The translations under genes and the position numbers were made by a program. The notes under the pieces are model-generated. The model was given only the letters and a program-made list of their open reading frames with translations. It was not told where the DNA came from and ran no database searches. From Candidatus Zambryskiibacteriota bacterium (GTDB lineage: Bacteria > Patescibacteriota > Minisyncoccia > Phycocordibacterales > DATDWN01): a DNA stretch of 64,000 bases. Location of the stretch: NCBI GenBank assembly GCA_023267045.1, contig JAHFOB010000001.1, positions 9,593 through 73,592 on the forward strand, given 5' to 3'. Shown here piece by piece: positions 1,837 to 63,399 of the stretch (its first letter is position 1; each line of letters starts with the position of its first letter).

Positions 1837-2840
1837 AGATTCTTATATCTACAGGTATATATCCACCAAAAATTGGAGGTCCAGCAGAATATAGCAAGAA
1901 CTTAAAAAGTCAGTTTATAACATCTGGACACAAGGTTTTTATTGCTACGTATTCTTTGGAAAATTATTTACCGACCGGCTTAAGACATCTTTATTTTTTC
2001 ATAAAAATAATGCCGAAAGTTTTACGTTCGGATTTCGTTTTAATAATGGATACATTTTCAGTTGGTTTGCCGACGGTTTTGGCTTGCAAACTTTTTGGTA
2101 AAAAATCGATCATTCGTACCGGCGGAGATTTTTTGTGGGAGGGGTTCGTTGAAAGAACGGGTAAAAAAGTATTACTTCGTGATTTTTATGAAAAAGAGAT
2201 AAATAATTTTTCTGCAAAAGAAAGAATTATTTTTAGGTTAACCAAATGGACACTTAAAAATACTTCTAAAATTGTTTTTTCAACACAGTGGCAAAGAGAG
2301 ATTTTTAAAAAACCATATGATCTTGAAATGGGACATACAGAAATAATAGAAAATTTCTACGGGTCTAAAGAGGGAGATTTTCAGCCAAAAGAAAAAGATT
2401 TCGTCGCTTCAACACGCAGACTTGTTTGGAAAAATACAGATCTTCTGAAAGAGGTTTTTCAAAAAATTAAGTCTAGAAATAATGAAGTTTCTCTTTTCTC
2501 TGCAAATTTGCCATTTGCAGAATTTATGGAGAAAATTAAAAACTGTTACGCTGTTATACAAGTTTCTTTAGGTGATATCAGTCCTAACATGATACTGGAT
2601 GCTATACGATATAACAGACCTTTCATTTGTACTAAAGAAGTTGGAATATACGATAGGATTGGAGATGTTGGTATTTTTGTTGATCCACTTAACGAAAAGC
2701 AGATAGAAGAGGCCGTCTTGAAATTATTAGATAAAAATGAATATGAAAAGGCTAAAGAAAAAGTAAAACAGTTTTCTTTTGTTCACACATGGCAAAGTAT
2801 TGCTACAGAATTTATGGGTGTTTATAACAAAATAAAATGA
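1833..2840 (+). CDS. Glycosyltransferase-like protein (GT-B-like N-terminal domain)
   Basis: N-terminus MKILISTGIYPPKIGGPAEY resembles a GT4 N-domain, but the C-terminal E-x7-E motif is not obvious. The gene sits in an operon, with ATGA stop/start overlaps to both neighbours. Confidence 0.45.
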   Translation: MKILISTGIYPPKIGGPAEYSKNLKSQFITSGHKVFIATYSLENYLPTGLRHLYFFIKIMPKVLRSDFVLIMDTFSVGLPTVLACKLFGKKSIIRTGGDFLWEGFVERTGKKVLLRDFYEKEINNFSAKERIIFRLTKWTLKNTSKIVFSTQWQREIFKKPYDLEMGHTEIIENFYGSKEGDFQPKEKDFVASTRRLVWKNTDLLKEVFQKIKSRNNEVSLFSANLPFAEFMEKIKNCYAVIQVSLGDISPNMILDAIRYNRPFICTKEVGIYDRIGDVGIFVDPLNEKQIEEAVLKLLDKNEYEKAKEKVKQFSFVHTWQSIATEFMGVYNKIK

Positions 2841-2841
2841 A

Positions 2842-2940
2842 TCCCGTTAGAGTTTTACTAAATTTGATTAGAGTAATAATTATATTAGAAAATCAGTGTA
2901 TAATAATTGGTATTAGAAAATAATGAAAAACTCTAACGGG
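2842..2940 (+). mobile_element. 99-bp miniature element bounded by inverted repeats TCCCGTTAGAGTTTTAC / GAAAAACTCTAACGGG, flanked by a 5-bp direct repeat ATGAA (copy 1)
   Basis: Read directly: the left arm (2842-2858) and right arm (2925-2940) are reverse complements. ATGAA lies at 2837-2841 and again at 2941-2945. The spacer holds an extended -10 box TGTATAAT (2897-2904) oriented toward the downstream gene. The original ATGA stop/start junction of the two flanking GT genes appears to have been split by the insertion. Confidence 0.6.
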
Positions 2941-4056
2941 ATGAAAGTACTTTCTATAAGCACAGACAGAAAATTGTTTGAAGAAGGAAGCGCTGTTTTA
3001 GAGCGTTCAAAAGATTATGCTTCCAAAATGGAGAAATTGCACATAATAGTTTTTTCCTTAAAAAGTCATAATTTAAAATTTAAAGAAGAAGGGAATTTGT
3101 ACATTTATCCAACAAATTCTTTGTCGAGATGGTTTTATGTGATGGATGCAGTGAAAATAGGAAAAAGTATTTTAAATAAAAGTTTTGTTATTTCCACCCA
3201 AGATCCATTTGAGACTGGTTTAGTCGGCTATAAACTTAAGAAAAAGTTTAATCTGCCACTCCAAATCCAAATACACACTGATTTCCTAAGTCCATATTTC
3301 AGAAATTCTTTCTTGAATTATATTCGTGTTTTTATTTCAAAATTTACTATTCCAAAAGCAGATTATGTTCGTGTTGTCAGTTCTTCAGTAGAAGATTCTC
3401 TAAGAAAAATCTCAACAAAAGTGAAAATTCAGATTTTGCCAGTTTTTGTTGATATTCCAAGAATAATGAATTTTCAACCAAAAAAAGATATAAAAAAAGA
3501 TTTTCCTCAATTTAAATTTAGTATTTTTATGGCTTCCCGGTTGACCAAAGAAAAGAGAATAGACACTGCACTCAAGGCTTTTAGAAAAGTAGTCGATGTC
3601 CACACAGAAGCTGGTTTGATTATTTCTGGATCAGGAAAAGAGGAAGGTAATCTAAAAAGTTTGGTAAAATCTCTAGGGCTTACAAAAAATGTTATTTTCA
3701 CTGGTTGGAATGATGGTTTGATTTCATATTATAAAACAGCAGATATTTTTCTACTTACTTCACAGTACGAGGGTTATGGTATGACTCTTGTGGAGGCTGG
3801 AGCATCGGGCTGTCCTATTGTTACGACAAAAGTTGGTCTGGCAAAAACAGATCTTTTTAAAAACGGAGCAAACTCTTTTGTCTGTTCAGTTTGGGATGTA
3901 AATTGTTTATCAGAATCTATTTTAAAACTTATTTCTAATCCCAATTTAAGACTATTGTTCAAAACAAAAATGCAGGATAGTATTAGAAATACAACTATTT
4001 CAAAAGAAGAATATGTGACAAAGTATGTCAGTTTGCTTCAGGATTTATTAAAATAA
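2941..4056 (+). CDS. Glycosyltransferase family 4
   Basis: Carries the E-x7-E motif EGYGMTLVEAGASGCPIVTT. The track start at 2923 adds MKNSNG, which is encoded by the element's right repeat; 2941 is the ATG contiguous with the gene body. Confidence 0.7.
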   Translation: MKVLSISTDRKLFEEGSAVLERSKDYASKMEKLHIIVFSLKSHNLKFKEEGNLYIYPTNSLSRWFYVMDAVKIGKSILNKSFVISTQDPFETGLVGYKLKKKFNLPLQIQIHTDFLSPYFRNSFLNYIRVFISKFTIPKADYVRVVSSSVEDSLRKISTKVKIQILPVFVDIPRIMNFQPKKDIKKDFPQFKFSIFMASRLTKEKRIDTALKAFRKVVDVHTEAGLIISGSGKEEGNLKSLVKSLGLTKNVIFTGWNDGLISYYKTADIFLLTSQYEGYGMTLVEAGASGCPIVTTKVGLAKTDLFKNGANSFVCSVWDVNCLSESILKLISNPNLRLLFKTKMQDSIRNTTISKEEYVTKYVSLLQDLLK

Positions 4057-6352: not shown

Positions 6353-6358
6353 TATGTA

Positions 6359-6457
6359 TCCCGTTAGAGTTTTACAAGTTTTGAAAATGGTACAATTATA
6401 TTTAATAAATTATGGTATATTTGGTCGGGAGGTATAATAATTAAGAACTCTAACGAG
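6359..6457 (+). mobile_element. 99-bp inverted-repeat element, copy 2, flanked by 5-bp direct repeat ATGTA
   Basis: Left arm TCCCGTTAGAGTTTTAC at 6359-6375; right arm GAACTCTAACGAG at 6445-6457. ATGTA lies at 6354-6358 and at 6458-6462. A TATAAT box sits at 6433-6438. The element is exactly the same length as copy 1. Confidence 0.55.
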
Positions 6458-7177
6458 ATGTATAAAAATAAAAAAGTAAGTGTAGTAATATCCACCTATA
6501 ATGAGTCAGCAAGCATTCGTGGTGTTATAGACGATTTTTTTGCTACAGGTCTTGTTGATGAAGTTGTTGTGGTAGACAACAACGCTCTTGGAAATACAAG
6601 AGAGGAAGTTGCTAAGACAAAAGCTCGTCTTATTGTTGAAAAGAAACAGGGATTGGGTTGGGGTTTACGAAAGGGGCTTGAAGAAGTAACAGGAGATTTG
6701 ATTGCAATGGTAGATGCTGATGGATCATATTTTTCAAAGGATATTGAAAAACTTCTTGCATACAGCGATGAGTTCGATGCTGTGCTTGGAACAAGAACTT
6801 CTCGATCTGCGATTTTCTCTGGGGCATTTATGCCCTTTTCTGTACGTATTGCAAATTCAATTTGGGCAAAGTCAGTAGAGTTTTTGTATAACGGACCATT
6901 ACTGAGTGACGTAGGTTGTTTATATAAACTTTTATCGAGAAAGGCACTCAACGAAATAAAGCCATTTTTTCCTATATCTACTGGTGGACCAATTTTTTCT
7001 CTGGAGATTATACTTTGGCTTTTGCGTAAAAAAGTCAAAACTATTGAGGTGCCAGTGATTTTTAAAGAAAGAGTGGGTAAGTCGAGTTATGTTGGTGATA
7101 GCATCTACAAAACGGCAAAATGGGGGTTTAAAATGATACCTTTTATTATAAGAGATAGGTTTATTTCAGTTAGATAA
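6458..7177 (+). CDS. GT2 glycosyltransferase, polyprenyl-phosphate sugar synthase-like (DPM1/GtrB-like catalytic domain)
   Basis: VSVVISTYNE start and DAD motif (IAMVDADGSY), which are GT2 hallmarks. At 239 aa it has no membrane domain. Confidence 0.7.
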   Translation: MYKNKKVSVVISTYNESASIRGVIDDFFATGLVDEVVVVDNNALGNTREEVAKTKARLIVEKKQGLGWGLRKGLEEVTGDLIAMVDADGSYFSKDIEKLLAYSDEFDAVLGTRTSRSAIFSGAFMPFSVRIANSIWAKSVEFLYNGPLLSDVGCLYKLLSRKALNEIKPFFPISTGGPIFSLEIILWLLRKKVKTIEVPVIFKERVGKSSYVGDSIYKTAKWGFKMIPFIIRDRFISVR

Positions 7178-31473: not shown

Positions 31474-32490
31474 TTAGAAAAATTGTTTGAATCTTCGGAG
31501 TGAAGCTGATGTGTTTGCTATGAGTTTTGGTGCGATGATCATACTTAAAAACTGAATATTTTCTGGAAAAATATCGAAATAAATACTAAGTGCATTCAAC
31601 GAAAATTTACGCACCCTTACCCCATTAAATGATTTTAGCAAGAGTCCTCCCATGAGAAGTGATGCCCAGTGTTTTCTGTATTTTCTATATTCACTTGGTA
31701 AATACTCTTTTATAATTTTTGCCACTTCAGGTGGGTCAAATGTATCTATCCAAAAATCGAGTGGGATATTATGTGTCCAATTTGTTTCGTTTTTTCGATG
31801 AAGTACAAAACACTGTCCGATAATAAGCAGTTTTCCATATTTGCCAATACCTATAAGTAATGGCGCTTGAAATATATACACATTTTTTGGTTTTAAGTAT
31901 TTTCTTGTAGTTTCAAGTTCTTTGTTAAATATATCCTTTTTAAAAACGACAGCTGTAGCCAAGTTTGTCATATGAATCCAATTGTTAACATCCCTCAGTT
32001 TGTTACAATCTCTTTCAAAATCTTCTATAAAGATATCTTTTGTAATATTGAGTCTGTTTTGTAGAGAGATCTCATACTTTTTATTTGAATCATCAAGCGA
32101 CATCATATTTGATGTGTTGATCAAAATAATATTTGGTTTTTTTTCTCTAATACAATCAATAATATATTTCAGTGCTCCATCTGTAAGCAAATCATCGTCG
32201 CAACATATAAGAACATAGGGGCCTATCGCTTTATCTATAAGCCATAATATGTTTGGCGAAACCCCAAGATTTTTCTCTTGGACATATCCATCTACAAAAC
32301 CATATTCGTTGTCAGCGTGTTTGACGTATGTGGCTGTATCATCGCCAGATGCATCATCGCTTATAATTATTTGGACTAGGTTTTCCAGTCCAGCACTTTT
32401 GATTTGATTAGCTAAAGTGGTAACTATAGTTTCAAGAAATTTTACTCTCTTGTACGTAGGAATAACTATACTAAGTAAAATATTTTTCAT
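31474..32490 (-). CDS. GT2 glycosyltransferase
   Basis: LLSIVIPTYKR start and a DDD region (ICCDDDLL). The track start at 32508 adds MNDSNG from the repeat footprint. The ATG at 32490-32488 is contiguous with the gene body. Confidence 0.65.
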   Translation of the reverse strand: MKNILLSIVIPTYKRVKFLETIVTTLANQIKSAGLENLVQIIISDDASGDDTATYVKHADNEYGFVDGYVQEKNLGVSPNILWLIDKAIGPYVLICCDDDLLTDGALKYIIDCIREKKPNIILINTSNMMSLDDSNKKYEISLQNRLNITKDIFIEDFERDCNKLRDVNNWIHMTNLATAVVFKKDIFNKELETTRKYLKPKNVYIFQAPLLIGIGKYGKLLIIGQCFVLHRKNETNWTHNIPLDFWIDTFDPPEVAKIIKEYLPSEYRKYRKHWASLLMGGLLLKSFNGVRVRKFSLNALSIYFDIFPENIQFLSMIIAPKLIANTSASLRRFKQFF

Positions 32491-32503
32491 CCCGTTAGAG
32501 TCG
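32491..32503 (-). repeat. 13-bp footprint or solo terminal repeat (CGACTCTAACGGG on the minus strand) of the 99-bp element, flanked by ATGAA direct repeats
   Basis: Plus strand reads TTCAT-cccgttagagtcg-TTCAT (32486-32508). The footprint sits at a TGA/ATG stop-start junction, the same target context as the full copies. Confidence 0.5.
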
Positions 32504-32504
32504 T

Positions 32505-33581
32505 TCATATTTTCCAGCTTATTCTTCGAGGAATAAAATGTTTATCATCTTTCCACTCTTTCAGTGTTGCTTCTCTGGCTGCAGTCCAAATACTCATATT
32601 CCAGCTTATGTTTCCATTCGTGTCCATTACTGGTGGTATATTATGTTCTTGACACCATTTTTTTGCAGAGTCAGCATATATTTTTTCGTCTGTTGATGTT
32701 TGGCCACTTAAATGTTCACAGGCTAATCCAAGTACTGCCACGGTATAACCTTTTTCTATTGCTTGAAGACAAATAAGTCGGTCATAGTAGTGGTTAATAG
32801 GGAAGTTTGGTCGATAACCAATCTCATTCCAGACTTTTCTAGGGAAGGCAATTGCGCATCCATCTAGTAAAATTGCTTCGGTCAGTCCATCAAAACGCTC
32901 ACCATGTACCTTTGCGTCTGTGCCAGTCCATTTTTTGTCTTTGTATCTATATGTTCTCGCGGCAAAGTTTGAAGTTGTCCCCCATCCTCGTCCACCAGTT
33001 TTGTTTATTTCATCAGAACCTACAAAACCAACTACACCAAGTTTCGGATCGCGTGCAAACAAATATTTTAGGAGAACATCAAAGTTGTCTTCATCGACTA
33101 CGATATCGCTGTGAATAAAAAGTATAATATCTCCCTCCGTGTTTTTCATACCAACATCGAAACACGGATAAACGCTTATATTTCCTTCTGGCGGGCAAAT
33201 CACTTTTACTTTGATATCTGCTGGTAAGTGCGAAGTTTCTGGTCTGAAATCACCCCCATTGTCTATCACAACAATTTCAATTGGTTCGCTATGGTGTTTT
33301 ACAATTTTATTAATACAAAATTGTGCCAAATCATGTTGTCCCAACACCGGAATTATAATTGAAAATGTAAGGTGGTGAGTTTTTTTGTGGCCATATTCTT
33401 TTGCCGCTTCTCGCAACTCCTTTCCAGGATTTTTGCCTACATAAAGTCCGATCTTTCTTATGAGGTTTTGAGTTTTGTGATATATAAATCTATACGTCTT
33501 ATACAAGAGTGGACTAAATCCTTGTTTTCGGAGCATACGATAGGCATTCTGGATTTTAGTTGTGAGTGGTATTTTCTGCAT
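32505..33581 (-). CDS. Glycosyltransferase, GT2-like
   Basis: FSIIIPVLGQ ... VVIDNGGD and SDIVVDEDNFD motifs. Confidence 0.5.
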   Translation of the reverse strand: MQKIPLTTKIQNAYRMLRKQGFSPLLYKTYRFIYHKTQNLIRKIGLYVGKNPGKELREAAKEYGHKKTHHLTFSIIIPVLGQHDLAQFCINKIVKHHSEPIEIVVIDNGGDFRPETSHLPADIKVKVICPPEGNISVYPCFDVGMKNTEGDIILFIHSDIVVDEDNFDVLLKYLFARDPKLGVVGFVGSDEINKTGGRGWGTTSNFAARTYRYKDKKWTGTDAKVHGERFDGLTEAILLDGCAIAFPRKVWNEIGYRPNFPINHYYDRLICLQAIEKGYTVAVLGLACEHLSGQTSTDEKIYADSAKKWCQEHNIPPVMDTNGNISWNMSIWTAAREATLKEWKDDKHFIPRRISWKI

Positions 33582-33587
33582 TTGTTT

Positions 33588-34955
33588 TTAGTTTGTTAGT
33601 ACAGGCTCAGGATTTATAGAGGCTTTATTATAAAGTATAATCACAATAATAGCCCATACAAGACGAATAATCACTCGAGCAATGACAAGACCAATAAGTC
33701 CCCACCACATAATACCCATGGTCAAAAGTATCATCTGTACTATAACTCCAGAAATACTATTTATATATTGTTCTTTTATTTTTTTCTTAGCTGACAGATA
33801 CGCATTTGCTGGTATAGAAAACATATATAGAAGTGAAAGGGAGAAAATCTGTGAATAGAAAACTGAACTCATGTATTTTGGAAAAAATATCTGGAAAATA
33901 TACGGAGCTGTAATCCAATAAGTAGCAATAAAAACAACACTGGTTATAAACAAAAGCATATACTTATTGCTCATTCCAGCTTTTATTTCTTTGTCAGAAC
34001 GTTCGGTGAATTTTGGTAAAATCAAATTACCGAGGTTTTGGATGGGACCTTTGATTTGGTTTGGTATGGCAGTAGCAAAGTTGTAGATTGCCAGTTGGAC
34101 TGGACCGATAAAATGGAACACCAAGATCTGGTCGATGTTGTCAGAGAATCCACCGAGAATACTAATCAGACTTAAGTGTTTACTGTAAGTCATCATGTTA
34201 GGATCCACCTTATTATTTGGTTTATAGATTTTTACTATTCTTTGATAGAGAATAAGACCGATGAGTGCATTTGAAGCAAAGTATACAAAAACTAAAACAA
34301 CAGGGTTGCTCGTTCTCATTATCGTCAATAGTAAACAAAGGTATGGAAAAAGATTACCAATTATTGTGAAGTATATTGCGATTCGTCTGAAATCTTTTTT
34401 TGCTGTCAGATATGAGCTATAAAAATTGGTGCTACTAAAAATTGGCCATAGACATCCGACGATAAGTATCGATATGCCAAGCGATGCATTTCCGTTCACA
34501 AAATAATATATTGAGGTACCAGCAGCTCCAATGAAAAACAACACAGACCATTTTATATTTTGCCAGAAGGCATAGTGGAGTGTTCCTTCAAATCCTCTAC
34601 TTACAGACTCAAATGTGGCAAGCCCTAATCCTGTCATTGTAAATGTAGCCAGGATACTACCTATAGATAGGATGTATTTATATTGACCATAAGCTTCTTT
34701 TGATACGAAATGCGCAAAGGCAATAGCCATTAGAAATGTGGCGAGAGAGGAGACCACCTGACCTATTGTTGACCAAAAACTACCCCGAGCGAGGTAGATC
34801 ATATCTATCTTGGCGTAACGCTCAAGCCACTTAAGCGTACGAAAGCCTTTTTCTCTGATGCTTTGCATATCGAGTACCGCTTCAATATATAACAAAAAAG
34901 CTATAAAGTATAGGGAAGAAATATTATTCAAACCACAGAATTGTGTAGGGTGCAT
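33588..34955 (-). CDS. Wzx-like polysaccharide/oligosaccharide flippase (MOP superfamily)
   Basis: 455 aa, about twelve TM helices, with the typical Wzx length and topology. Located inside the glycan locus. Confidence 0.55.
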   Translation of the reverse strand: MHPTQFCGLNNISSLYFIAFLLYIEAVLDMQSIREKGFRTLKWLERYAKIDMIYLARGSFWSTIGQVVSSLATFLMAIAFAHFVSKEAYGQYKYILSIGSILATFTMTGLGLATFESVSRGFEGTLHYAFWQNIKWSVLFFIGAAGTSIYYFVNGNASLGISILIVGCLWPIFSSTNFYSSYLTAKKDFRRIAIYFTIIGNLFPYLCLLLTIMRTSNPVVLVFVYFASNALIGLILYQRIVKIYKPNNKVDPNMMTYSKHLSLISILGGFSDNIDQILVFHFIGPVQLAIYNFATAIPNQIKGPIQNLGNLILPKFTERSDKEIKAGMSNKYMLLFITSVVFIATYWITAPYIFQIFFPKYMSSVFYSQIFSLSLLYMFSIPANAYLSAKKKIKEQYINSISGVIVQMILLTMGIMWWGLIGLVIARVIIRLVWAIIVIILYNKASINPEPVLTN

Positions 34956-35988
34956 CGCCTGGAAAAGTTATATTACCAAAAACTTTTCCGAGGCGTTGTT
35001 TCCATTTTGGCAGACTAAAAGATGGAGTAATCTCTACGTCAGGATGTTTTTGATGCAACTCTTTTTTTGATGAAAATTTTTCTACACTTTTTACAGTTCG
35101 TTCAAAAGTTGGAACGCCGACCTGGGCTACAGTTATACGAAATAATCTGTAGACTATTTTGTGACCAGGTAGGACAGGTATAAGTTCTGTCAAGTCTGCA
35201 GCTATTCGACAGTCATAATTTTTCTCCCTACTTGCAAGTTTTTTGTAGTGTGGAACCTGAACTGGTTTTGTGACGAGAACCTGAACTGTGCCGTCGTAGA
35301 CAGGGTATTTCCTCATAAAATCCACGAAATTATCTAATTTTTGCTCAAAAGTTTCCTTGTATTCAGGGTTTTGAGAAAGCCATTTGGAGATATCTGTGGA
35401 TCTTAATCCGTGCCAACCAAACTGCCCGTTCCATACTACTCCGTGATTTCCACCTTCTATACTAAAACGTTCCGCTACTTCAACTGGCGCAAACGTCATA
35501 TCTTCTTTTTCCAAAAAAGGTCTAGCCGTTTCGCATATCCACAAATCTTCCGGATGAAATTTCCCTCCGATTTTTTTGTAATTTTTCGAAATATAATCTA
35601 AGAGTCTTTTGCTACGAATACTAAATCCTCCACCACCAACATGTGTTTTTCCGAGATGGTACCATGGTGCTCCAATATAATCGTATGTTAAAAATTCATC
35701 TTCCCAAGCTGAAGGGTTGGCTATAAAGCTGTCTGGATGGAAACAAAGGGCATATTCTGTTTCTACATGTTTAGCAAATTCACTGATATAAAATTCCGAA
35801 TACTTTTGCCAATCGTTGAGAATTTCTGGGACTTGTATTACTCGAGGATCACTGTCCGGAATAGATGAAAGTATTTTCACCGCACCGAAAGAAAATTCTT
35901 TTTCGCATATGTCCGCTGCAACTTTTGTTGTTTTTAGATTTATGCAATCAAAAGTAATAAGGGTAACATTTGGCAAATATTTTTTCAT
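34924..35988 (-). CDS. Hypothetical soluble protein of the glycan locus
   Basis: Intact 354-aa ORF with no motif I can confidently name. Confidence 0.3.
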   Translation of the reverse strand: MKKYLPNVTLITFDCINLKTTKVAADICEKEFSFGAVKILSSIPDSDPRVIQVPEILNDWQKYSEFYISEFAKHVETEYALCFHPDSFIANPSAWEDEFLTYDYIGAPWYHLGKTHVGGGGFSIRSKRLLDYISKNYKKIGGKFHPEDLWICETARPFLEKEDMTFAPVEVAERFSIEGGNHGVVWNGQFGWHGLRSTDISKWLSQNPEYKETFEQKLDNFVDFMRKYPVYDGTVQVLVTKPVQVPHYKKLASREKNYDCRIAADLTELIPVLPGHKIVYRLFRITVAQVGVPTFERTVKSVEKFSSKKELHQKHPDVEITPSFSLPKWKQRLGKVFGNITFPGDAPYTILWFE

Positions 35989-36004
35989 TTTTTTATTTTT
36001 GGGT

Positions 36005-37063
36005 TTATTCTATCTTAAACAAGCTTTCGAAGAAACGTATTTGAATTTTGCATTCTCGCCAGTAGATTTTTTCCCAGTTTTTGTATACAGGATAGTCACT
36101 TTCTCGGATAGTCACGTTTTCGTTCGGTATCTCGGAAACCTTCCATTGCTTAGAATAAAAATAACCTGATGTAAGACGATCGATCAGTTTATAGTAGTAC
36201 GTTATCTGGTCCATACGCATTTCATGAAGTGAAGATATGTTAACAAATATATCTGTGCATTTAGACGGAAGTAGTTCAAGTTGACTTGAAAGAAGGAATA
36301 TAATGTCAGCATTTTGGAATTCATCCTTGATATCTTCAAATGAATTCCAATCTCTGAATTTGAATATTTTTCTCTCTGGAAATTGCTCTGAAAGATATTT
36401 TTGAGCTATCCATAAGGCGGGAGGTATGTCGACGATAATATAGCGTATTTTTGGCATCGTTTTCAAAAATACATACGCTGTTCTTCCGTATCCAGCACCA
36501 AGCTCAATTATTGTTTTTATTTCTTTTTTATCTTTTACGTTTTCTATTGCAGAATAATATTCCAATACAGAATGTGCTAGGTCTTGTGATATTAGTTTCT
36601 TGCCACGGTAGATTTGTGGGGGGTTACCCTCAAGTGGTTCGTCCAAAGAATCAAGCAAGTTTTCCTTATCATTTTTTTGTGTGAAATCCCAAAGTAGATT
36701 GCTAAAATAGTTATATGCAAGTGATTGTGTCAAGGTAAAGAATTTATGTTTTTTTGGAAAAAAGAGTACACGGAAAATATTACCCAGAACAATACCCGTG
36801 GAGAGATTTTTCCTAAGTTCTCTAATCTGTCTGTCTTTTGGGAAACTTCTTACTAGGTATCTTAGTGGTGCACTGGGTCCAGCCATAGTCCAGGTAAAGT
36901 AGTTGAGTGCAATAGTTTGTTTGAAATTTTCATACCCGTGCTCCTCAAGCTGCTCTAGGTTTTTTCGGTTGAGTTCAATCCAGTATTTTGAAGGTAAAAC
37001 CTCTGTAGGTGCTCCGGAAAGGGCGTCAAACATTTCTCTGATCTCTTTTTTCTCCTTTTCCAT
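36005..37063 (-). CDS. Putative SAM-dependent sugar O-methyltransferase
   Basis: IELGAGYGRTAYVF glycine-rich SAM motif in the C-terminal half. The architecture resembles glycan-locus O-methyltransferases. Confidence 0.4.
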   Translation of the reverse strand: MEKEKKEIREMFDALSGAPTEVLPSKYWIELNRKNLEQLEEHGYENFKQTIALNYFTWTMAGPSAPLRYLVRSFPKDRQIRELRKNLSTGIVLGNIFRVLFFPKKHKFFTLTQSLAYNYFSNLLWDFTQKNDKENLLDSLDEPLEGNPPQIYRGKKLISQDLAHSVLEYYSAIENVKDKKEIKTIIELGAGYGRTAYVFLKTMPKIRYIIVDIPPALWIAQKYLSEQFPERKIFKFRDWNSFEDIKDEFQNADIIFLLSSQLELLPSKCTDIFVNISSLHEMRMDQITYYYKLIDRLTSGYFYSKQWKVSEIPNENVTIRESDYPVYKNWEKIYWRECKIQIRFFESLFKIE

Positions 37064-54503: not shown

Positions 54504-54579
54504 CATACCACATGCCGAGGTAACTCAGTTAGCAGAGTGCTTCCCTGAAGAGGAAGAAGTCGCCAGTGCAACTCTGGCC
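54504..54579 (+). tRNA. tRNA-Phe (anticodon GAA)
   Basis: Manual fold: acceptor GCCGAGG/CCTCGGC, D-stem ACTC/GAGT, anticodon stem CTTCC/GGAAG with loop CTGAAGA, T-stem GCCAG/CTGGC, discriminator A, and an encoded CCA. Confidence 0.8.
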
Positions 54580-56132
54580 CTCGGCACCATAATCCGACTT
54601 TCGTCGGAAGAACCAACGGATGCGTGGGACGCGCGAAGTGCGTCCCACGGAGTTCCGCCTGAATCTGCGAGGGAATCTGTCAAAAATGAATCTGAATTTG
54701 GAGTGCAAGCACTCACGGTTTTTTCGCGGAGGAGGAGGTTCGAGCCAAAGACTTTTTTGGCAGCAACCTTTTTATTCAAAAGGTTGCTATCCAATGCAAT
54801 TTTTTCCATATTCTGGGCTTCTTTTATCCATTCTGACATCGGTTCGAGCCAATGTTTTTGCTTTTGTTCATTCCGAGATATTTCTTCTTCCAGCGACTTT
54901 TTCTCGGATAACAATTTTGCTTTTTGTTCACGATATACTTCTTTTTCTACATCTTGGTCTAAATATCCATCTAAAAGTCGCTGGAGCTTCACAGTAATAT
55001 CTTTTATACGATTTTGATTTTTTAGAACAAAAGCAGAAACAGATTGGGCGGATTCCGTTTTGTCGTTTTCTAAACGACCGAACATATATTCCGCCCAATC
55101 TTGTGGCAAAGAAACTTTTTGAAGAAGTGATGAAATTTGTTCGTCCAAGACTTCCTGGCGAATACAGGGTTCAGGACACTTAATATCTCGTCGCTTTTTG
55201 GAACAGTGATAGTAAGTGTAATAATGTTCTTTACCACTGACTTGTTTCTTCACCCTGTATTCGCCAGTGATCATCATTCCGCAAGTTCCACAGGATAACA
55301 AACCACAATATGCTTGGGGTTCATTTTTCTGTTTGTGTCTTGGACGACCTCTTTGCTTCATCACTTCTTGGACTCTATCAAAAAGTTTCTTGTCCACGAT
55401 TGGCTCAAACTTTCCTTCATAGACTTCACCAGAATATCTAAAGTGTCCATAGTAAAAAGGATTAGACAGAATAAAAGTAGCTCTGGTTCTATGGATTCTC
55501 TTTCCGTGTTTTGTTAAAAGATTGTGCTTCGCCAAAAACATACCGATAGTATTAAGAGTTTGATTACCTTGTGAATACAGTTCGAACGCTTGTCTTATAA
55601 CAGGCGCGGATTTTTTGTCCACCACGATTGTCTTTGTTCTACTATCGTTTATATATCCCACTGGTGAAAGTCCTGGATATTCTCCGCGCCTAACTTTTTG
55701 GCGAAGTCCTCTTTTGGTATTTTCGGAAAGAGAATCCACATAGTATTTACTTTGTCCGAAAGCCATGTTGAGCATGAATTTACCTTGACTCGTAGAATCA
55801 CACCAAAAAGTAGGAAACTTCAAGCTCGCAAGTTTCCCTGTGTCGAGGAGGTATATTATTTTTCCACCATCAATACTATTTCTTGCGAGACGATCCGGAT
55901 GCCAAGAGAGGATAGAATCTGCATCGCCATTTTCGATACATCTCATCATTTCGTTGAAAATAGGACGACCTGGAATCTTGGCAGATTGTTTTTCTATAAA
56001 CTCAAGGGCGATGTTCAGATTTTCTCGCTTGGCATAGTCTCGCAATTCGTTGAGCTGTGCCTCAATCGAAAGAACTTGTTTGTCCTCGACATCTGTTGAC
56101 TTGCGAGCGTATAAAAAGAATTTTTGTTCCAT
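54525..56132 (-). CDS. Large serine recombinase (resolvase/integrase family)
   Basis: N-terminal catalytic domain FFLYARKSTDVEDKQVLSIEAQ (Ser nucleophile context) ... WHPDRLARN, a recombinase domain, and Cys-rich zinc-ribbon CGTCGMMITGEYRVKK...CSKKRRDIKC. M at 56132 is the likely start. The 3' end of the ORF runs through IR-A and antisense through tRNA-Phe with no stop until 54525, so the true C-terminus is uncertain. Confidence 0.75.
   Translation of the reverse strand: MEQKFFLYARKSTDVEDKQVLSIEAQLNELRDYAKRENLNIALEFIEKQSAKIPGRPIFNEMMRCIENGDADSILSWHPDRLARNSIDGGKIIYLLDTGKLASLKFPTFWCDSTSQGKFMLNMAFGQSKYYVDSLSENTKRGLRQKVRRGEYPGLSPVGYINDSRTKTIVVDKKSAPVIRQAFELYSQGNQTLNTIGMFLAKHNLLTKHGKRIHRTRATFILSNPFYYGHFRYSGEVYEGKFEPIVDKKLFDRVQEVMKQRGRPRHKQKNEPQAYCGLLSCGTCGMMITGEYRVKKQVSGKEHYYTYYHCSKKRRDIKCPEPCIRQEVLDEQISSLLQKVSLPQDWAEYMFGRLENDKTESAQSVSAFVLKNQNRIKDITVKLQRLLDGYLDQDVEKEVYREQKAKLLSEKKSLEEEISRNEQKQKHWLEPMSEWIKEAQNMEKIALDSNLLNKKVAAKKVFGSNLLLREKTVSACTPNSDSFLTDSLADSGGTPWDALRASHASVGSSDESRIMVPRARVALATSSSSGKHSAN
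54622..54756. repeat. Inverted repeat IR-A (~135 bp, left copy) flanking the serine recombinase gene
   Basis: About 85% identical to the reverse complement of 56185-56317. It contains the hairpins CGTGGGACGC-gcgaagt-GCGTCCCACG and GAGTGC-aa-GCACTC, and ends in a T-arm-like GGAGGAGGTTCGAGCC. Confidence 0.7.
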
Positions 56133-56184
56133 ATGTTTGTAGTATAGCAAAAATTCTTTTTGTAAAGAAAAGTAAAAATTGTAT

Positions 56185-56317
56185 TGGATTCGAACCTCCT
56201 CCTCCAAAACAAATTAGTGCGCGCTTGCGCGCCAGATTCAGATTCATTTTTGGCGGATTCCATCGCAGATTCAGGCGGGAACCCTTGGGATGCACTTCGT
56301 GCGTCCCACATTATGGC
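56185..56317. repeat. Inverted repeat IR-A' (right copy, about 50 bp upstream of the recombinase start)
   Basis: Reverse complement of 54622-54756. The hairpins are conserved with compensatory changes (GCGCGC-aa-GCGCGC against GAGTGC-aa-GCACTC). Confidence 0.7.
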
Positions 56318-56334
56318 TTCTTCAAAACCGATTT

Positions 56335-56575
56335 GTTCTATTTTGGTGTGTCTTTACGACTTCGCTCGAACTTATTTCATTAAAACTGTTTAAGTGGTGA
56401 ATCTGACAATGAATTCCGTCACGGCTCGGCATCCGCTCCAGAACACGCTGGAAAGCGTGTTCTTCCGCTTCTGCCTTACCGTGTCCGCCCTCGCACCCAT
56501 CGCTTCCAATCCTAAATCTGTTTTGCGCGGGATTTCTTTTTTCGGAATGGGCGATTGGTTCTCGGGCTACTTGCC
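56335..56575. repeat. Inverted repeat IR-B (~240 bp, left copy), GC-rich, with internal hairpin GAACACGCT-ggaa-AGCGTGTTC and a terminal hairpin plus T-tract
   Basis: Near-identical to the reverse complement of 59355-59598. The identical 61-aa track ORFs (56394-56579 + and 59347-59547 -) are a consequence of this repeat. Confidence 0.75.
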
Positions 56576-56611
56576 GTGACAAAAAATTAACCAAAATGTT
56601 ATACTTAAAAC

Positions 56612-58228
56612 ATGGATGAACAAACTCCTACTATTATTCCTCCCCCGATACCCCAGGAAGAACCTCAAAAAACTAAACAGCCATTATGGTTAGCGGTCTC
56701 AATTCTGGCTGCAGTTTTTGTAGTTGTCGGTAGTTATTTTATATATCAAAAACTAACGACAAAATCACAGATTCAGAATGTAAATTTTGTAAATATTGCT
56801 ACGACCACAGATCAATTTGCAAATTGGAAAACATATACCGATGAACAGTATAAATTTGAGTTTAAATATCCAGCTACACTTGAAGTTTTTAAAGATAATA
56901 CGGCGATTATTCACATTATTCATCCCGAAGATAAGGACGTAGATTTAAGTAAAACTGGGCCAGTAGATGGCATGTGGATACATGTTGTGGATAATACAGA
57001 TAAATTATCCGTCACTGATTGGTGGAATAAATACGGACCTTATACTCCAAAAAGAAATGGTACTGGACTTAAACCCGACACTTTTCCAATTAAGAATATG
57101 AGCGTGGGTAATTTAAACGGTATTTACATTGGTGGTTCAGAGGGTGTTTTATCGAATTACCTCATTTTGCCATATATGGATAAAATCCTTGAAATTAATG
57201 TAATGACTAAAGATTTCAAGGAAATTCTCTCTACTTTAAAATTACCAGAATCATTAACAAAAGATTGGCAAACCTACAGAAACGATGAGTTTAAAATTTT
57301 TGAAATAAAATATCCTGGAGGATGGGTAATTCAACAGGAAGATCCTTACCAGCTTATTTTATCAAGTGCTCCAAAAGAACAATATTTGAAAGATGTTGGT
57401 GTCGCTCCTTCTGGAAATATGTCAATAACCGTGTCAGAGGGTGTAAATTGCTCTAGTGATGATTTCAAAAGCCTTCTCGGTTTTACGAAGTCAAACATTT
57501 CAGTTAAAAGAGTTTGTGTTGATGGATTTCAGATCTCAGCAGTTATTTGGAATGATGATACGCAAATAATTTCTCATAAAGAACTACTGAATGAAATTAT
57601 TTCCACATTTAAATTTATTGAGAAAAAACGACTTAGTAAAGAAGAACTAGCAAACAGAATATTACTAACTTCAGAAAATATTCCTACTTACGCAAAATAT
57701 AATGAACCATATAAAAGCGGGAGTTTACCCTCAGCATGTACTGAAAAATTTAATTATGACGAGCCAAATAGTACAACTACTTATTCTAATACAAAATGGG
57801 GCATATCGTTTGGAGTTCCATATAATGTAAATTGGGGAAATAGTAAGTACAGAATAGATCCGTATGAAGAAATTGAGGTAAATAATAAATATAACAACGA
57901 TGTCTTATCTGCTATTTCATGGGGTTATATTAGTGGTGGTGAGGGATGTTCATGGGGAAGACAATATTTTGTTGATATTAAATCAAAAAAATCAGCGGAG
58001 GATCTTATGACATCAATGAAACCGGATAATCTTCCTTACGATATATTTCATGCTAAAATCGAGACAATAAATAACTTACAGGTTGTAAAATATAGTACTG
58101 CCGATATGTGTGCATATTACTATATAGTAGTTATTGGTAAAAAATATAATTATGAATTCACATCTTCATGTAATGGAAGTTTTGATGACGTTGAACCGGT
58201 AGTTAAAACAGTAAAACTACTTGATTAA
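56612..58228 (+). CDS. Secreted or membrane-anchored protein of unknown function (N-terminal TM/signal anchor, Pro-rich linker, ~480-aa extracytoplasmic domain)
   Basis: KQPLWLAVSILAAVFVVVGSYFIY anchor. No recognisable catalytic motif. Enclosed between the IR-B copies. Confidence 0.4.
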   Translation: MDEQTPTIIPPPIPQEEPQKTKQPLWLAVSILAAVFVVVGSYFIYQKLTTKSQIQNVNFVNIATTTDQFANWKTYTDEQYKFEFKYPATLEVFKDNTAIIHIIHPEDKDVDLSKTGPVDGMWIHVVDNTDKLSVTDWWNKYGPYTPKRNGTGLKPDTFPIKNMSVGNLNGIYIGGSEGVLSNYLILPYMDKILEINVMTKDFKEILSTLKLPESLTKDWQTYRNDEFKIFEIKYPGGWVIQQEDPYQLILSSAPKEQYLKDVGVAPSGNMSITVSEGVNCSSDDFKSLLGFTKSNISVKRVCVDGFQISAVIWNDDTQIISHKELLNEIISTFKFIEKKRLSKEELANRILLTSENIPTYAKYNEPYKSGSLPSACTEKFNYDEPNSTTTYSNTKWGISFGVPYNVNWGNSKYRIDPYEEIEVNNKYNNDVLSAISWGYISGGEGCSWGRQYFVDIKSKKSAEDLMTSMKPDNLPYDIFHAKIETINNLQVVKYSTADMCAYYYIVVIGKKYNYEFTSSCNGSFDDVEPVVKTVKLLD

Positions 58229-58272
58229 TAATTTGTTGCTTAAAAATTGGTATTTGATATAATGTCAGTAAT

Positions 58273-58755
58273 ATGGCTCGCGATGTACTAAATGCACAAC
58301 AAATAGCCGAATACTTCCTCTGGAAAGCGCAAAACGAGAAAAAGGCAATTACGAATAAGAAACTGCAGAAATTACTTTACTATGCTCAAGCATGGTCTTT
58401 GGTTTTGCGTGACAAAAAACTTTTCAGTGACAAAATTGAGGCGTGGGTACATGGGCCTGCTGTTCGTGATGTATATTTTGAATACAAAAAATTTGGCTTT
58501 GGGCCAATCACAAAAACTGTAAAGGAAAATGACTTAGAAAAAATTTCTATAGATACAAAAAAATTCCTCGATCAAGTTTGGTCTGTATATGGTAAAAAAG
58601 ATGCAGCTTATTTGGAATATCTTTCTCACTCTGAAACTCCTTGGCAAAAAGCCCGCGAAGGACTTGAACCACATATTGGGTCTGAAAATGAAATTTCTCC
58701 TAAAGACATGAAGGAATTTTACAGTTCTAAACTCACAACACAGAAACATACTTAA
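58273..58755 (+). CDS. Panacea-domain (DUF4065/SocA-like) protein, a putative antitoxin-type component
   Basis: ARDVLNAQQIAEYFLWKAQ...ITNKKLQKLLYYAQAWSLVL...AWVHGPAVRDVY matches the DUF4065/Panacea core. Three nucleotides separate it from the next ORF. Confidence 0.45.
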   Translation: MARDVLNAQQIAEYFLWKAQNEKKAITNKKLQKLLYYAQAWSLVLRDKKLFSDKIEAWVHGPAVRDVYFEYKKFGFGPITKTVKENDLEKISIDTKKFLDQVWSVYGKKDAAYLEYLSHSETPWQKAREGLEPHIGSENEISPKDMKEFYSSKLTTQKHT

Positions 58756-58758
58756 ACT

Positions 58759-59187
58759 ATGACAATACCATCACCGGACGAGAAACTTCCAGAAAGTCCA
58801 ATACCATTGACCGCTGTTGAAATTCCACAACCTGAAGAACCGCCAGAAGCGAAACCTTTTCTGATATCTTTCGAAAAGTATAACGATAAGGAGTGCCAGC
58901 TAGACGGAATGGAGAGCAAAATGGCTAAAAAAGCTTTTAAAACTATTCGTGATATTGGTGTAAATATAAGAGACGAAAGCGATTTTGGTAAATATTTACC
59001 AAAATTAGAAGTTGTCCCTATAGAAAATAGTGGAGATTACAGAAAATTATACAAAGGACTAACAGATATGCCAGATGTTGAAGTGAAAGAAGCAAAAATT
59101 GATCGTCATACAGGTCGATTATTCTTTTTCTTGGTAGGTAAAATTTTTCATATTATCGCGGTAAGAGAAAGTCATTACCAAACATAA
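58759..59187 (+). CDS. Hypothetical protein with a RelE/ParE/Gp49-like C-terminal region; putative toxin partner
   Basis: C-terminal KIDRHTGRLFFFLVGKIFHIIAVRESHY resembles the RelE/ParE-superfamily C-terminal strand-helix. The Pro-rich N-terminal extension is unusual. Tightly coupled to the upstream Panacea gene. Confidence 0.25.
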   Translation: MTIPSPDEKLPESPIPLTAVEIPQPEEPPEAKPFLISFEKYNDKECQLDGMESKMAKKAFKTIRDIGVNIRDESDFGKYLPKLEVVPIENSGDYRKLYKGLTDMPDVEVKEAKIDRHTGRLFFFLVGKIFHIIAVRESHYQT

Positions 59188-59354
59188 AAAGCACAGCAGT
59201 TTACTTGTAGCCTCGGACATATTCCGTTTTGGGCGTCGTCACATAACTACAAAATGATACATTACCACTAGCGCAAAGGAATGTCTGAGGCGAATGATTA
59301 TGTTAGAGTAAAGATATAGGTAGGTAGTACAGTAGTTTGAATTCCGTCAGTTTC

Positions 59355-59598
59355 TCCCTTTAAGGAGAAACCCGCCCGAGAACCAATCGCCCATTCCGAA
59401 AAAAGAAATCCCGCGCAAAACAGATTTAGGATTGGAAGCGATGGGTGCGAGGGCGGACACGGTAAGGCAGAAGCGGAAGAACACGCTTTCCAGCGTGTTC
59501 TGGAGCGGATGCCGAGCCGTGACGGAATTCATTGTCAGATTCACCACTTAAACAGTTTTAATGAAATAAGTTCGAGCGAAGTCGTAAAGACACACCAT
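59355..59598. repeat. Inverted repeat IR-B' (right copy)
   Basis: Reverse complement of 56335-56575. The match breaks at TTCTCGGGC on both sides. Confidence 0.75.
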
Positions 59599-60900: not shown

Positions 60901-63033
60901 TTACTTAGGCCACATCGATATCATAAGCATCTCTTTTTCTTTGCCAGGAAGGTTTTGCCAGATTTCTTCTGTTATAAAAGGCATGAACGGGTGTAGTATC
61001 GTAAGGCAAGTTTCCAGAATATGAGTCAATGTATATTGTATCGATGAAACCACTTCAGGATCTTCACTTTTTAATTTTTCTTTTGATTGTTCTATTATTT
61101 TATCAGCAAATGTGTGCCAAACATAGTGATAAAGTTTTTCTGTAGCTAGATAAAATCTAAAGTTGTCCATATCACTTGTAACATCTTGAACTAAAAGATT
61201 TAGTTCATCGAGCGTAGTTTGGTCACTACTTTCGATTTTTCCGGGTCTTTTAGCATCCCAGTTTTCGGTATTTGATAATACAAATCTAGTTATGTTCCAA
61301 ATCTTATTAGCGAAAAGTTTATAAGCCTTAACTTTGCTTTCTTGCAGTGCTAGATCTGTTCCTGGCGTATTTCCGACAATGAGAGCCATTCGCAAAGCAT
61401 CTGTTCCGTATTTTGAAGTCAGATCGAGTGGATTTACGACATTACCTTTTGACTTACTCATTTTTTTACCTTTGGCGTCGTTTACAAGTCCATGAAGATA
61501 GACAGTATTGAAAGGTACTTTGCCAGAAAGATAGAGACCAAAAATGACCATACGTGGGACCCATTTGAAAATCAAGTCATGTCCAGTTTCCATAACGTCT
61601 GTCGGATAATACTTTTCAAAATCTTTTCCATCTGGGTAGCCGGTGACAAATAGTGGCCATTGCCCAGACGAGAACCATGTATCAAATGTGTCAGAGTCTT
61701 TTATCCAACCGTCACCTTCCGGTTTTTCTTTGCTTGCTGTAGCTTCATTTTCTTTGAGCCATGCTGGTATAGGTATACCCCAAACTATCTGACGAGAAAT
61801 ATTCCAATCTATTGTATTGTTCATCCAATATCTAAAGATTTTTTCGTAGTTATCAGGTATAAATTTCACTTCCCCTCTATCAACTGATTCCAGAGCTTTT
61901 TTTGCCAGAGGTTCCATTTTAACAAACCATTGATCTTTTATTTGAGGTTCGATTATTGTATTGCATTTGTAGCATCTTTTAACAACATTTTTATATTTGT
62001 CATCTATTTTTACAAGCAGTCCTTTTTCTTTCAATTTATCAACTATTTTTGGCCGAGCTTCTTTTATATTTATTCCAGCAAATTCTCCCGCAACAGGCAA
62101 AAGTTTCCCACGCCAGTCGATTATTTGTTCAACATCCAAGTTATATTTTTGAGCTAGCTCAAAATCCACCTGCGAATGCCATGGTGTGATAGTCATAACT
62201 CCCGTTCCAAACTCCATATCAACGACTGGGTCTTTTATGACAGTTGCTTCGATCGGGCCATTTATCCATTCGACCATCATTTTCTGTCCATGTTTATATT
62301 CGGAATATCTTTTGTCGTCTGGATGCATTACCACATATTTATCAGCAAATTTTGTTTCTGGCCTAACAGTTCCTATTTCAAATGGCCCGTATTTGAAATA
62401 ATAAAAAGGATTTATCTCTTCAACAGATTCAGTTTCAACTTCAGATAGGGAAGTCTGATGTTTTGAACACCAGTTCACAGTTCGTTTGCCTCTGTAAACT
62501 AAACCATCGTTATACATTTTTATAAACGTATCTTGAGTTTTTTTTACAATGTCTGGATCAAGTGTAAATTTTTCACGCGACCAATCACATGAAGCCCCAA
62601 GAGATCTGACTTGAGTCTCCATATTCTTTTTATTCTCTAAAGTAAAATCTAGAATTTCTTTGTATAAATCTTTTGGATCCATGCCAAATCTAGATCTCCC
62701 TTCTTTCTCAAGTTTCTTTTCATAAACAACTTGTGTTTCAAATCCAGCATGGTCTGCACCAGGAATCCAAAGACTTCTAAATCCCTGCATTCTTTTGAAA
62801 CGAGTCAGTATGTCTTCAATAGTTATAAACAAAGCATGTCCAGCATGGAGGTTGCCGTTTGCATTAGGTGGGGGCATAACTATTGTAAACGGTTCAGCTT
62901 TTGAGTTAGTGTTGTTGTCTGGACTAAAAAATCCACTGTTTTCCCACATACTGTAGATCCGATTTTCCGTATTTTCTGGTTTGTATGGGGATAAGAATAT
63001 TTCTTTCATCCCGTTAGAGTTTTTCATAATCAA
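60901..63033 (-). CDS. valS: Valyl-tRNA synthetase (compact form lacking the long C-terminal coiled-coil)
   Basis: PFTIVMPPPNANGNLHAGHA (HIGH region, with the ValRS-type PPPN context) and KMSKSKGN. The track start at 63033 includes MIMKNSNG encoded by the 99-bp element. MKEIFL at 63009 is the ATG contiguous with the gene body. Confidence 0.8.
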   Translation of the reverse strand: MIMKNSNGMKEIFLSPYKPENTENRIYSMWENSGFFSPDNNTNSKAEPFTIVMPPPNANGNLHAGHALFITIEDILTRFKRMQGFRSLWIPGADHAGFETQVVYEKKLEKEGRSRFGMDPKDLYKEILDFTLENKKNMETQVRSLGASCDWSREKFTLDPDIVKKTQDTFIKMYNDGLVYRGKRTVNWCSKHQTSLSEVETESVEEINPFYYFKYGPFEIGTVRPETKFADKYVVMHPDDKRYSEYKHGQKMMVEWINGPIEATVIKDPVVDMEFGTGVMTITPWHSQVDFELAQKYNLDVEQIIDWRGKLLPVAGEFAGINIKEARPKIVDKLKEKGLLVKIDDKYKNVVKRCYKCNTIIEPQIKDQWFVKMEPLAKKALESVDRGEVKFIPDNYEKIFRYWMNNTIDWNISRQIVWGIPIPAWLKENEATASKEKPEGDGWIKDSDTFDTWFSSGQWPLFVTGYPDGKDFEKYYPTDVMETGHDLIFKWVPRMVIFGLYLSGKVPFNTVYLHGLVNDAKGKKMSKSKGNVVNPLDLTSKYGTDALRMALIVGNTPGTDLALQESKVKAYKLFANKIWNITRFVLSNTENWDAKRPGKIESSDQTTLDELNLLVQDVTSDMDNFRFYLATEKLYHYVWHTFADKIIEQSKEKLKSEDPEVVSSIQYTLTHILETCLTILHPFMPFITEEIWQNLPGKEKEMLMISMWPK

Positions 63034-63107
63034 TTTTTAATTTTAGTCTATATTTTGCGCGATAGATAATACATATCCACATTCGTTATAAGTAAAACTC
63101 TAACGGG
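63009..63107 (-). mobile_element. 99-bp inverted-repeat element, copy 3, immediately upstream of valS, flanked by ATGAA direct repeats (minus-strand sense)
   Basis: Plus-strand arms TCCCGTTAGAGTTTTTC (63009-63025) and GTAAAACTCTAACGGG (63092-63107). TTCAT lies at 63004-63008 and again at 63108-63112. Same length as the other two copies. Confidence 0.55.
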
Positions 63108-63399
63108 ATTCATGTAATAAGATTAACATATAGACGTCGTAGTTAGTAGGTTTTGTTAAAAAAGACTATTTTCATATAAAGGACATAGCATATCGACTCT
63201 AAATCTAATGTCCTTTATAAGTCTTTTCTAAAATAAGTCGCAAAATAATGTCTTAATAGAATCTAAAGGACATCAATTTTGGCATAAAAGACAAATATTA
63301 AAATACAGCTCAGATTAGCCATATAATAAAAATCACTAAAATTTTCTAGCTATTGACGACATCGCAAAGCAAGTGTATCCTTTACGAACTAAAGTTTTT

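Follow-up and report, generated by a model that had tools for sequence, protein, structure and literature searches.

The closest described counterparts of the sequence analyzed here are the miniature inverted-repeat transposable elements (MITEs) of bacteria, which are non-autonomous derivatives of DDE insertion sequences, and the Correia elements (CREE or NEMIS) of Neisseria, inverted repeats of ~100-150 bp that are located beside genes, are co-transcribed with them, form long hairpins in the mRNA and are able to provide promoters or sites of RNase III processing. Correia elements duplicate TA, have 26-bp repeats and are not tied to start codons. Excision of eukaryotic cut-and-paste elements usually leaves a footprint that consists of a few bases from both ends. 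Here we analyze a short site on the minus strand (positions 32486-32508) of a 64,000-nucleotide stretch, hereafter the window, from a Candidatus Zambryskiibacteriota bacterium (contig JAHFOB010000001.1, positions 9,593 to 73,592; assembly GCA_023267045.1), in which a small insert separates two ATGAA repeats at the junction of two glycosyltransferase genes. With a probability of roughly 0.8, this insert is what remains of a small mobile, MITE-like element that was inserted at a stop/start overlap and later lost its left part. The genes and the parts of the site are as follows.

32505..33581, minus strand: upstream glycosyltransferase gene of the GT2_5 type (Pfam PF13712 and PF00535), the protein ending in ...FIPRRISWKI*
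31474..32508, minus strand: downstream GT2 glycosyltransferase gene (Pfam PF00535)
32486..32508, minus strand: whole remnant site, consisting of a target-site duplication (TSD) copy, the 14-nt right-end remnant and the other TSD copy, A-TGAA-CGACTCTAACGGGA-TGAA
32504..32507, minus strand: upstream TGAA target-site copy, which forms the first ATG with A32508 and contains the stop TGA (32507-32505) of the upstream gene
32490..32503, minus strand: right-end remnant CGACTCTAACGGGA, the last A of which is the A of the second ATG (32490-32488)
32486..32489, minus strand: downstream TGAA target-site copy, that is, the TG of the second ATG and the first bases of codon 2

On the plus strand the site reads TTCAT-CCCGTTAGAGTCG-TTCAT, and on the minus strand ATGAA-CGACTCTAACGGG-ATGAA, placed at the TGA/ATG overlap that joins the two glycosyltransferase genes; reading both strands confirmed the repeats and their location as given in a preliminary description of this DNA. 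The stop codon of the upstream open reading frame (ORF) lies within the first ATGAA and overlaps the ATG at 32508-32506, and the second ATG is in the same frame as the first. Translation from the first ATG (P0001) starts with MNDSNGMKNILLS... and carries the MNDSNG N-terminal extension that had been predicted along with the two in-frame starts. If up to 2 mismatches are allowed, the window contains 6 occurrences of the 13-mer between the repeats, compared with 0.35 expected; for the complete 23-mer, with up to 3 mismatches allowed, there are 3 occurrences, compared with 0.00 expected in 100 shuffles. The three occurrences of the 23-mer are the remnant itself and the right ends of two full copies of the element (A and C below), each at 21/23 identity. 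Comparison of many copies shows that the TSD unit is 4 bp, TGAA, and therefore the remnant consists of 14 nt, CGACTCTAACGGGA; the match to the right end of the element that had been noted earlier stands, but the length of 13 bp assigned to it does not. The A of the second ATG is derived from the element and the A preceding the first TGAA is native. Two bases separate the remnant from copies A and C (CGA in place of AAA), which fits drift after the pairing partner was gone, although the parent could alternatively have belonged to an unsampled subfamily. There is no partner arm within 200 nt of the remnant, and the RNA structure predicted around it is not beyond chance (z +0.5).

Three full copies of about 100 bp each are present in the window besides the solo remnant:

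2838..2945, plus strand: full copy A (TSD TGAA at 2838-2841, element at 2842-2941, TSD TGAA at 2942-2945), with an internal ATGAA at 2923-2927, the upstream gene's stop TGA at 2838-2840 and the ATG of the downstream GT4 glycosyltransferase gene at 2941
6355..6462, plus strand: full copy B (TSD TGTA at 6355-6358, element at 6359-6458, TSD TGTA at 6459-6462), with a degenerate right arm, CTCTAACGAG, and the ATG of the downstream GT2 glycosyltransferase gene at 6458
63005..63112, minus strand: full copy C (element at 63009-63108, TGAA on each side), with an internal ATGAA at 63027-63023 and the ATG of the downstream class I aminoacyl-tRNA synthetase gene at 63009

In these copies the left arm is (ATGNA)TCCCGTTAGAGTTTTAC, the interior of ~60 nt is AT-rich and not conserved, and the right arm, AAAACTCTAACGGGA, is followed by TG, with the last A of the arm beginning the downstream ATG; the terminal inverted repeats are TCCCGTTAGAGTTTTAC / (A)AAACTCTAACGGGA. 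The predicted RNA folds of copies A, B and C have free energies of -29.5, -25.1 and -29.6 kcal/mol (z -6.2, -3.0 and -5.8, respectively). Copy A and the remnant are both positioned at ATGA stop/start overlaps. The gene start at which the remnant lies is indeed that of a glycosyltransferase, as previously described, but a tie of the element to glycosyltransferases is not upheld: the link is incidental, given that housekeeping genes follow copy C and most of the copies found elsewhere.

When 185,579 species-representative genomes were scanned with ATCCCGTTAGAGTTTTWC, 68 loci were obtained, 12 of them in a single metagenome-assembled genome (MAG), WY3.bin113, and a metagenome scan with ATGAANNNCTCTAACGGGATG added 41 more, including a shorter subfamily with the arms TCCCGTTAGAGAT / ATCTCTAACGGGA. 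The copy statistics reported here refer to 87 unique copies from Patescibacteria genomes and metagenomes. The element is MITE-like and non-coding, mostly ~80-110 bp long, with terminal inverted repeats TCCCGTTAGAG(TTTTAC) ... CTCTAACGGGA and 4-bp TSDs. The spacing between the termini is ~78-104 nt in most copies and ~170 nt in some subfamilies, the core starts of most paired arms are separated by 82-92 nt, and in the majority of the 69 oriented copies the pairing of the terminal 14-18 positions is perfect. Among the genomes scanned, paired arms were found only in Patescibacteria, also known as the Candidate Phyla Radiation (CPR), ultra-small bacteria in which the element is common; other phyla contain single unpaired arms, as predicted by chance. 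The MAGs with paired arms are labeled Paceibacterota, Zambryskibacteria, Uhrbacteria, Taylorbacteria, Yonathbacteria, Nomurabacteria, Minisyncoccia and, in some cases, Saccharibacteria, and the exact 18-base terminal repeat is common to many lineages of Patescibacteria. Judging by this distribution and by the names given to homologues, the window would most likely belong to a Paceibacterota-type genome. Nearly all exact 10-mer core arms in Patescibacteria loci have a partner arm, and a solo arm is the exception. The arm has no match among viral contigs. The covariance models of Rfam 15 gave no match in the window at gathering thresholds, with only a chance-level match near copy A (E = 2.1), and a known RNA family was accordingly rejected as an identification; nothing relevant to the motif or to MITEs in the CPR was found in the published literature. 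The family thus looks undescribed, judging by Rfam and the searchable papers. At the same thresholds the 64-kb window contains no tRNA, rRNA or other known RNA family. An integron attC site was also considered and rejected: the family has the order GTTAGAG ... CTCTAAC on both strands, which is the reverse of the arrangement in the attC consensus (RYYYAAC ... GTTRRRY along the strand). In one locus (L025, 2595-2760), upstream of ssb, there are two left arms, ATGAATCCCGTTAGAGTTTTAC and, 24 nt later, ATGAATCCCGTTAGAAAATTAC, but only one right arm after them, TTCTAACGGGATG; this nested or tandem arrangement looks like one copy inserted into another.

Several lines of evidence indicate that the family has been mobile. 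The 4 nt to the left of TCCCG are identical to the 4 nt to the right of CGGGA in 57 of the 87 copies. Because TGAA dominates, the test of flank matching was restricted to the 30 copies with a non-TGAA right flank, and in this set 15 are matched, whereas permutation predicts 0.84 and none of 10,000 permutations gave more than 6. The matched flanks are TGGA (five copies), TGTA and TAAA (three each), and TGCA, TCAA, CAAA and TGAG (one each); a minority of copies resemble 3-bp duplications (ATGA|TCCCG). Fixed-length direct repeats of varying sequence are the mark of insertion at a staggered cut. An identical 105-nt copy, including 5-nt ATGAA flanks, is found on two contigs of WY3.bin113 (L052 and L060) in unrelated surroundings. 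Different lineages have different subfamilies at the start of the same gene, with the duplications TGAA, TGCA and TGGA for a class I aminoacyl-tRNA synthetase and TGAA and TGTA for ssb, which points to repeated insertion at the same spot. At the synthetase start, L083 has TGCA on both sides and L099 has TGGA on both sides, whereas L082 (of the L082/L105/L114 group) has TGCA on the left and TGAA on the right, so that duplicated flanks can drift apart after insertion. Several of the features by which MITEs are recognized are found in the family, which is short and encodes no transposase, has terminal inverted repeats and TSDs of fixed length and variable sequence, and is present in multiple copies, including copies at unrelated loci. 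A long-range pair of arms enclosing an ORF was sought in the 122 loci and the window, and none was found; L055, initially a candidate for an autonomous element, was rejected as a chance match in an enterobacterium. On these sequence comparisons, the family looks MITE-like, with no transposase-bearing partner among the 122 loci and the window. Real mobility, for which the footprint had been cited in support, is likewise supported here, but the main support comes from the full copies rather than from the footprint.

The same adjacency of the GT2_5 and GT2 genes was found in two other genomes (L118 and L119), which were reached via homologues of the upstream gene:

L118, junction: ...GATTGGAAAATATGAAAGAAAATATATTACTA...
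L119, junction: ...GACTGGAAGATATGAAAGAAAATATACTA...
Window, junction: ...AGCTGGAAAATATGAA[CGACTCTAACGGGATGAA]AAATATTTTACTT... (square brackets round CGACTCTAACGGGATGAA)

In both genomes the junction, ...TGGAAAATATGAAAG..., has a single ATGAA and lacks the 13 bp, and in the alignment the window has an 18-bp insertion that consists of the 14-nt element end and a second TGAA. The context TGGAA(A/G)ATATGAA occurs once in each of the two genomes. The C-terminus xWKI* of the upstream protein is common to P0041 and P0043; given that this protein ends in xWKI* in the window, L118 and L119 alike, the first ATGAA represents the native site. The next-nearest GT2 genes (L071 and L073) have a single ATGAAAAAT start that overlaps the stop codon of a flippase gene, a different upstream neighbor; the 18 bp are missing from all four junctions. 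A longer remnant of ~30 nt, suggested by the resemblance of GGAAAATATGAA in the solo to AGAAAATAATGAA in copy A, was rejected together with an element-derived SWKI tail, because L118 and L119 natively have TGGAA(A/G)ATATGA and P0041 and P0043 end in DWKI. Alignment of orthologous junctions, proposed in the preliminary description as a check, thus gave the single ATGAA that is expected for a footprint. Relatives with the same 13 bp and no full elements, which it had named as the contrary outcome, are the opposite of what was found, with three full copies in the window and 87 in Patescibacteria loci. The sequence does not behave as a conserved translational signal or N-terminal extension either, given that the orthologues lack both the extension and the 18 bp.

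Other decayed copies accompany full ones at comparable loci. L091 contains a full copy, and L093 has lost 71 nt, comprising the left arm and part of the interior, with the right end kept. Upstream of the RNase R gene, a full copy is present at seven loci (such as L101, L097 and L075), the left part is lost in L081, and only TATGAAAATCTCTAACGGGATG, adjoining a host promoter, is left in L089. Remnants in the family are about 14, 21, 45 and 55 nt long and all retain the right end, as any viable deletion would, because the right end holds the start codon of the gene. Comparison of filled and empty sites thus gave empty (L118 and L119) versus solo (window) and full versus left-deleted; no pair of a full copy and a clean empty site was recovered among the compared loci.

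Taken together, these observations support the interpretation of the site as a footprint. A copy of the element would have entered the ATGA stop/start overlap of the two glycosyltransferase genes at the TGAA, which was thereby duplicated, and the last A of the element together with the duplicated TG would have rebuilt the ATG of the downstream GT2 gene. A later deletion of about 86 bp would have taken away the left arm and the interior, so that only the final 14 nt stayed between the TGAA copies; most likely it came about by slippage or by microhomology-mediated joining of the left ATGAA with an internal ATGAA. Copies A and C, like 23 of the 69 oriented copies, have an internal ATGAA exactly 18 nt before the ATG of the gene; the frequency of 23 in 69 is inflated by the metagenome scan pattern, which required the motif. 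Deletion between the left and internal ATGAA yields exactly ATGAA-13 nt-ATGAA, and because it joins these two repeats, the left breakpoint coincides with the boundary of the element. Such a deletion would have restored the ATGA overlap and removed the long hairpin. Several further observations weigh against this reconstruction. The closest relatives that share the gene adjacency are only 40-48% identical in protein sequence, and no relative has a full copy at this junction, so that we infer the full-length intermediate at this exact site, as we do the deletion route. Heterogeneity within the population was not seen, the two assemblies compared as DNA (L001 and L002) being identical at the junction. 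The CGA at the variant position of the remnant occurs in no sampled subfamily, and no autonomous element with the same ends was found in the 122 loci and the window.

Other origins of the remnant have to be weighed against such a deletion. Transposase-mediated excision of a full copy, with imprecise repair that left 14 nt of one end between the TSDs, would agree with the exact placement of the remnant between two intact TGAA copies and with the signs of recent movement in the family. We nevertheless consider it improbable: all 14 nt derive from the right end and the left end has contributed nothing, unlike the footprint of a cut-and-paste element, the other remnants are of different lengths (about 21, 45 and 55 nt) and lack the left flank, which fits ordinary deletions rather than a fixed cut, and the internal ATGAA offers a simpler route to exactly this product. 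Of the two origins left side by side in the preliminary description, internal deletion or imprecise excision of what is in either case a right-end remnant, internal deletion is therefore the better supported. It is still less probable that the right arm with its ATG is not a product of decay but a functional module, such as a translation-initiation or protein-binding signal or a short N-terminal tag, that was acquired alone and is under selection. The retention of the right end in every deletion derivative, the fixed polarity of the copies toward the gene (36 to 2) and their location ahead of essential genes (ssb, secY, ftsH, pyrG, murA and those for aminoacyl-tRNA synthetases) would all be compatible with such a module. 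However, the orthologous gene pairs work without the remnant, the right end is kept in any viable deletion given that the start codon lies there, and the near-universal pairing of the exact core arms in Patescibacteria loci makes the solo an exception. Chance resemblance in AT-rich sequence beside a start codon might be invoked for a short motif in a genome where ATGAA is a very common gene start, but the shuffling results for the 23-mer (zero expected) and the 13-mer (6 versus 0.35), along with the absence of the extra 18 bp from orthologous junctions, already refute this explanation, to which we attach almost no weight.

The decayed element may still affect the downstream gene. The GT2 protein has 344 aa if translated from the ATG at 32508, with the MNDSNG extension, and 338 aa from the ATG at 32490. 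The recorded gene call P0001 begins at the first ATG, and the ATGA overlap favors translation restart at this codon, whereas the N-termini of GT2 homologues align with the second ATG. Depending on the start codon used, the remnant today would be either six extra residues, MNDSNG, or a 15-nt spacer ahead of the second ATG; no structural role is predicted for it at present. The MNDSNG form is encoded in all three assemblies that carry the gene, and the extension is found in none of the 32 other GT2 homologues (39-70% identity). There is no GT2 relative of >70% identity in a 15-billion-protein collection, and exact look-ups of the products expected from empty sites (338-aa GT2, 371-aa GT4 and 702-aa synthetase) found nothing on record. 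The two glycosyltransferase genes belong to a set of five minus-strand genes at 31474-37063 (methyltransferase-like, DUF5672, flippase, GT2_5 and GT2) within an otherwise plus-strand polysaccharide cluster. Relatives have the same five-gene set in varying order, with an extra methyltransferase in L115, and this polysaccharide gene cluster is undergoing rearrangement between lineages.

The family shows a strong affinity to gene starts. In 69 of the 87 copies (~80%), TG and an ORF of at least 60 codons come immediately after the right end, that is, the copy lies on a start codon, and the terminal A of the element together with the duplicated TG re-forms the ATG of the downstream gene. The genes behind the copies include those for RNase R, FtsH, CTP synthase (pyrG), MurA, SecY, M24 peptidase, MurG, SSB and aminoacyl-tRNA synthetases. 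The terminal 16 bp are symmetric, but the TTTTAC arm is distal to the gene in 36 copies and proximal in 2. This polarity rules out an invertible promoter, and an inverton, in which the segment would occur in both orientations, was rejected on the same ratio; the bias suggests that orientation is under selection. In 16 of 61 copies, the upstream flank has an extended -10 box (TGnTAnnnT) whose end is 6-8 nt away from the left ATG, and in 12 of the 16 the distance is exactly 6 nt. This is the spacing of leaderless-type starts, and in such copies the whole element would therefore form the 5' end of the mRNA. Boxes of this kind (TGnTAnAAT) are seen, for example, in the flanks of L095, L085, L099, L082 and L101, and their spacing suggests that leaderless-type starts are common in these Patescibacteria; no paper on leaderless genes in Parcubacteria was found in the searchable literature. 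Inside the element, -10-like hexamers occur at similar frequency on the two strands (50 versus 43 copies), whereas extended -10 boxes favor the forward strand, 9 to 1, which is at most suggestive of a putative internal promoter. The only ORFs inside the element are variable leaders that run from the left ATG for 6-34 aa. In most copies they start with MNPVRVL..., but there is no conservation past the arm and the stop codons are scattered, so that a leader peptide or attenuator was rejected as a conserved feature. In the stems, G.U mismatches on the sense strand outnumber A.C mismatches, which might reflect selection on the RNA hairpin; these variants are not independent events because they are inherited within subfamilies.

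We therefore raise, as a tentative and on balance doubtful proposal, that the family might be a mobile 5' leader specialized for gene starts in Patescibacteria and kept in one orientation for the control of expression. Under this proposal, the element would land in the TGAA of ATGAA starts, often of the leaderless type (6 nt past an extended -10 box) or at ATGA overlaps, and its last base would rebuild the ATG; the interior, the hairpin or both would control the gene behind, essential genes included, for example through an internal promoter, sequestration of the start codon or RNase III processing. Solo ends such as that at 32486-32508 would then be repaired sites from which the cost of the hairpin has been removed.

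Elsewhere in the window, a large serine recombinase with Resolvase, Recombinase and Zn_ribbon_recom domains is encoded at 54525-56207(-). The recombinase gene is adjoined by a perfect 228-nt inverted repeat (56340-56567 and 59374-59601), the arms of which are apparently richer in G+C than the surroundings and enclose 2.8 kb (whole region 54525-59601) with genes for a PsbP_2-like protein of 538 aa, a SocA/Panacea antitoxin-like protein and a 142-aa ORF. A second inverted repeat of 135 nt (80% complementary; 54624-54758 and 56175-56309) brackets the recombinase gene itself. From its layout, the segment between the 228-nt repeats could be an invertible or mobile cassette.

By itself the footprint is minor and of an ordinary kind for a MITE in decay: it marks an old insertion, and one glycosyltransferase may be six residues longer because of it. 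The family would account for spurious MK(N/I)SNG N-terminal extensions and short leader ORFs in the gene calls of these genomes, and it provides a handle on how reduced genomes tolerate, and possibly use, a hairpin of 16-18 bp that covers the start codons of essential genes. Its two notable properties are that about four in five copies rebuild a start codon and that a single orientation is maintained before essential genes across lineages.

In comparison with known systems, the family resembles bacterial MITEs in its small size, the lack of coding capacity, the perfect terminal inverted repeats of 14-18 bp, the short TSDs of variable sequence, the many copies per genome, the subfamilies that differ in the interior and the identical copies at unrelated loci. 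It departs from bacterial MITEs in general in that ~80% of the copies end on a start codon and rebuild it, with the polarity fixed at 36 to 2, and in that the 122 loci and the window contain no parent insertion sequence with these ends. Compared with Correia elements, the family has a 4-bp TSD that is mostly TGAA, is found in Patescibacteria and has unrelated repeats. The remnant itself is similar to solo or truncated transposon ends and to excision footprints in being a short end piece at a former insertion site between TSDs; unlike excision footprints, it represents one end only, which fits a deletion from ATGAA to ATGAA rather than the joining of ends after excision.

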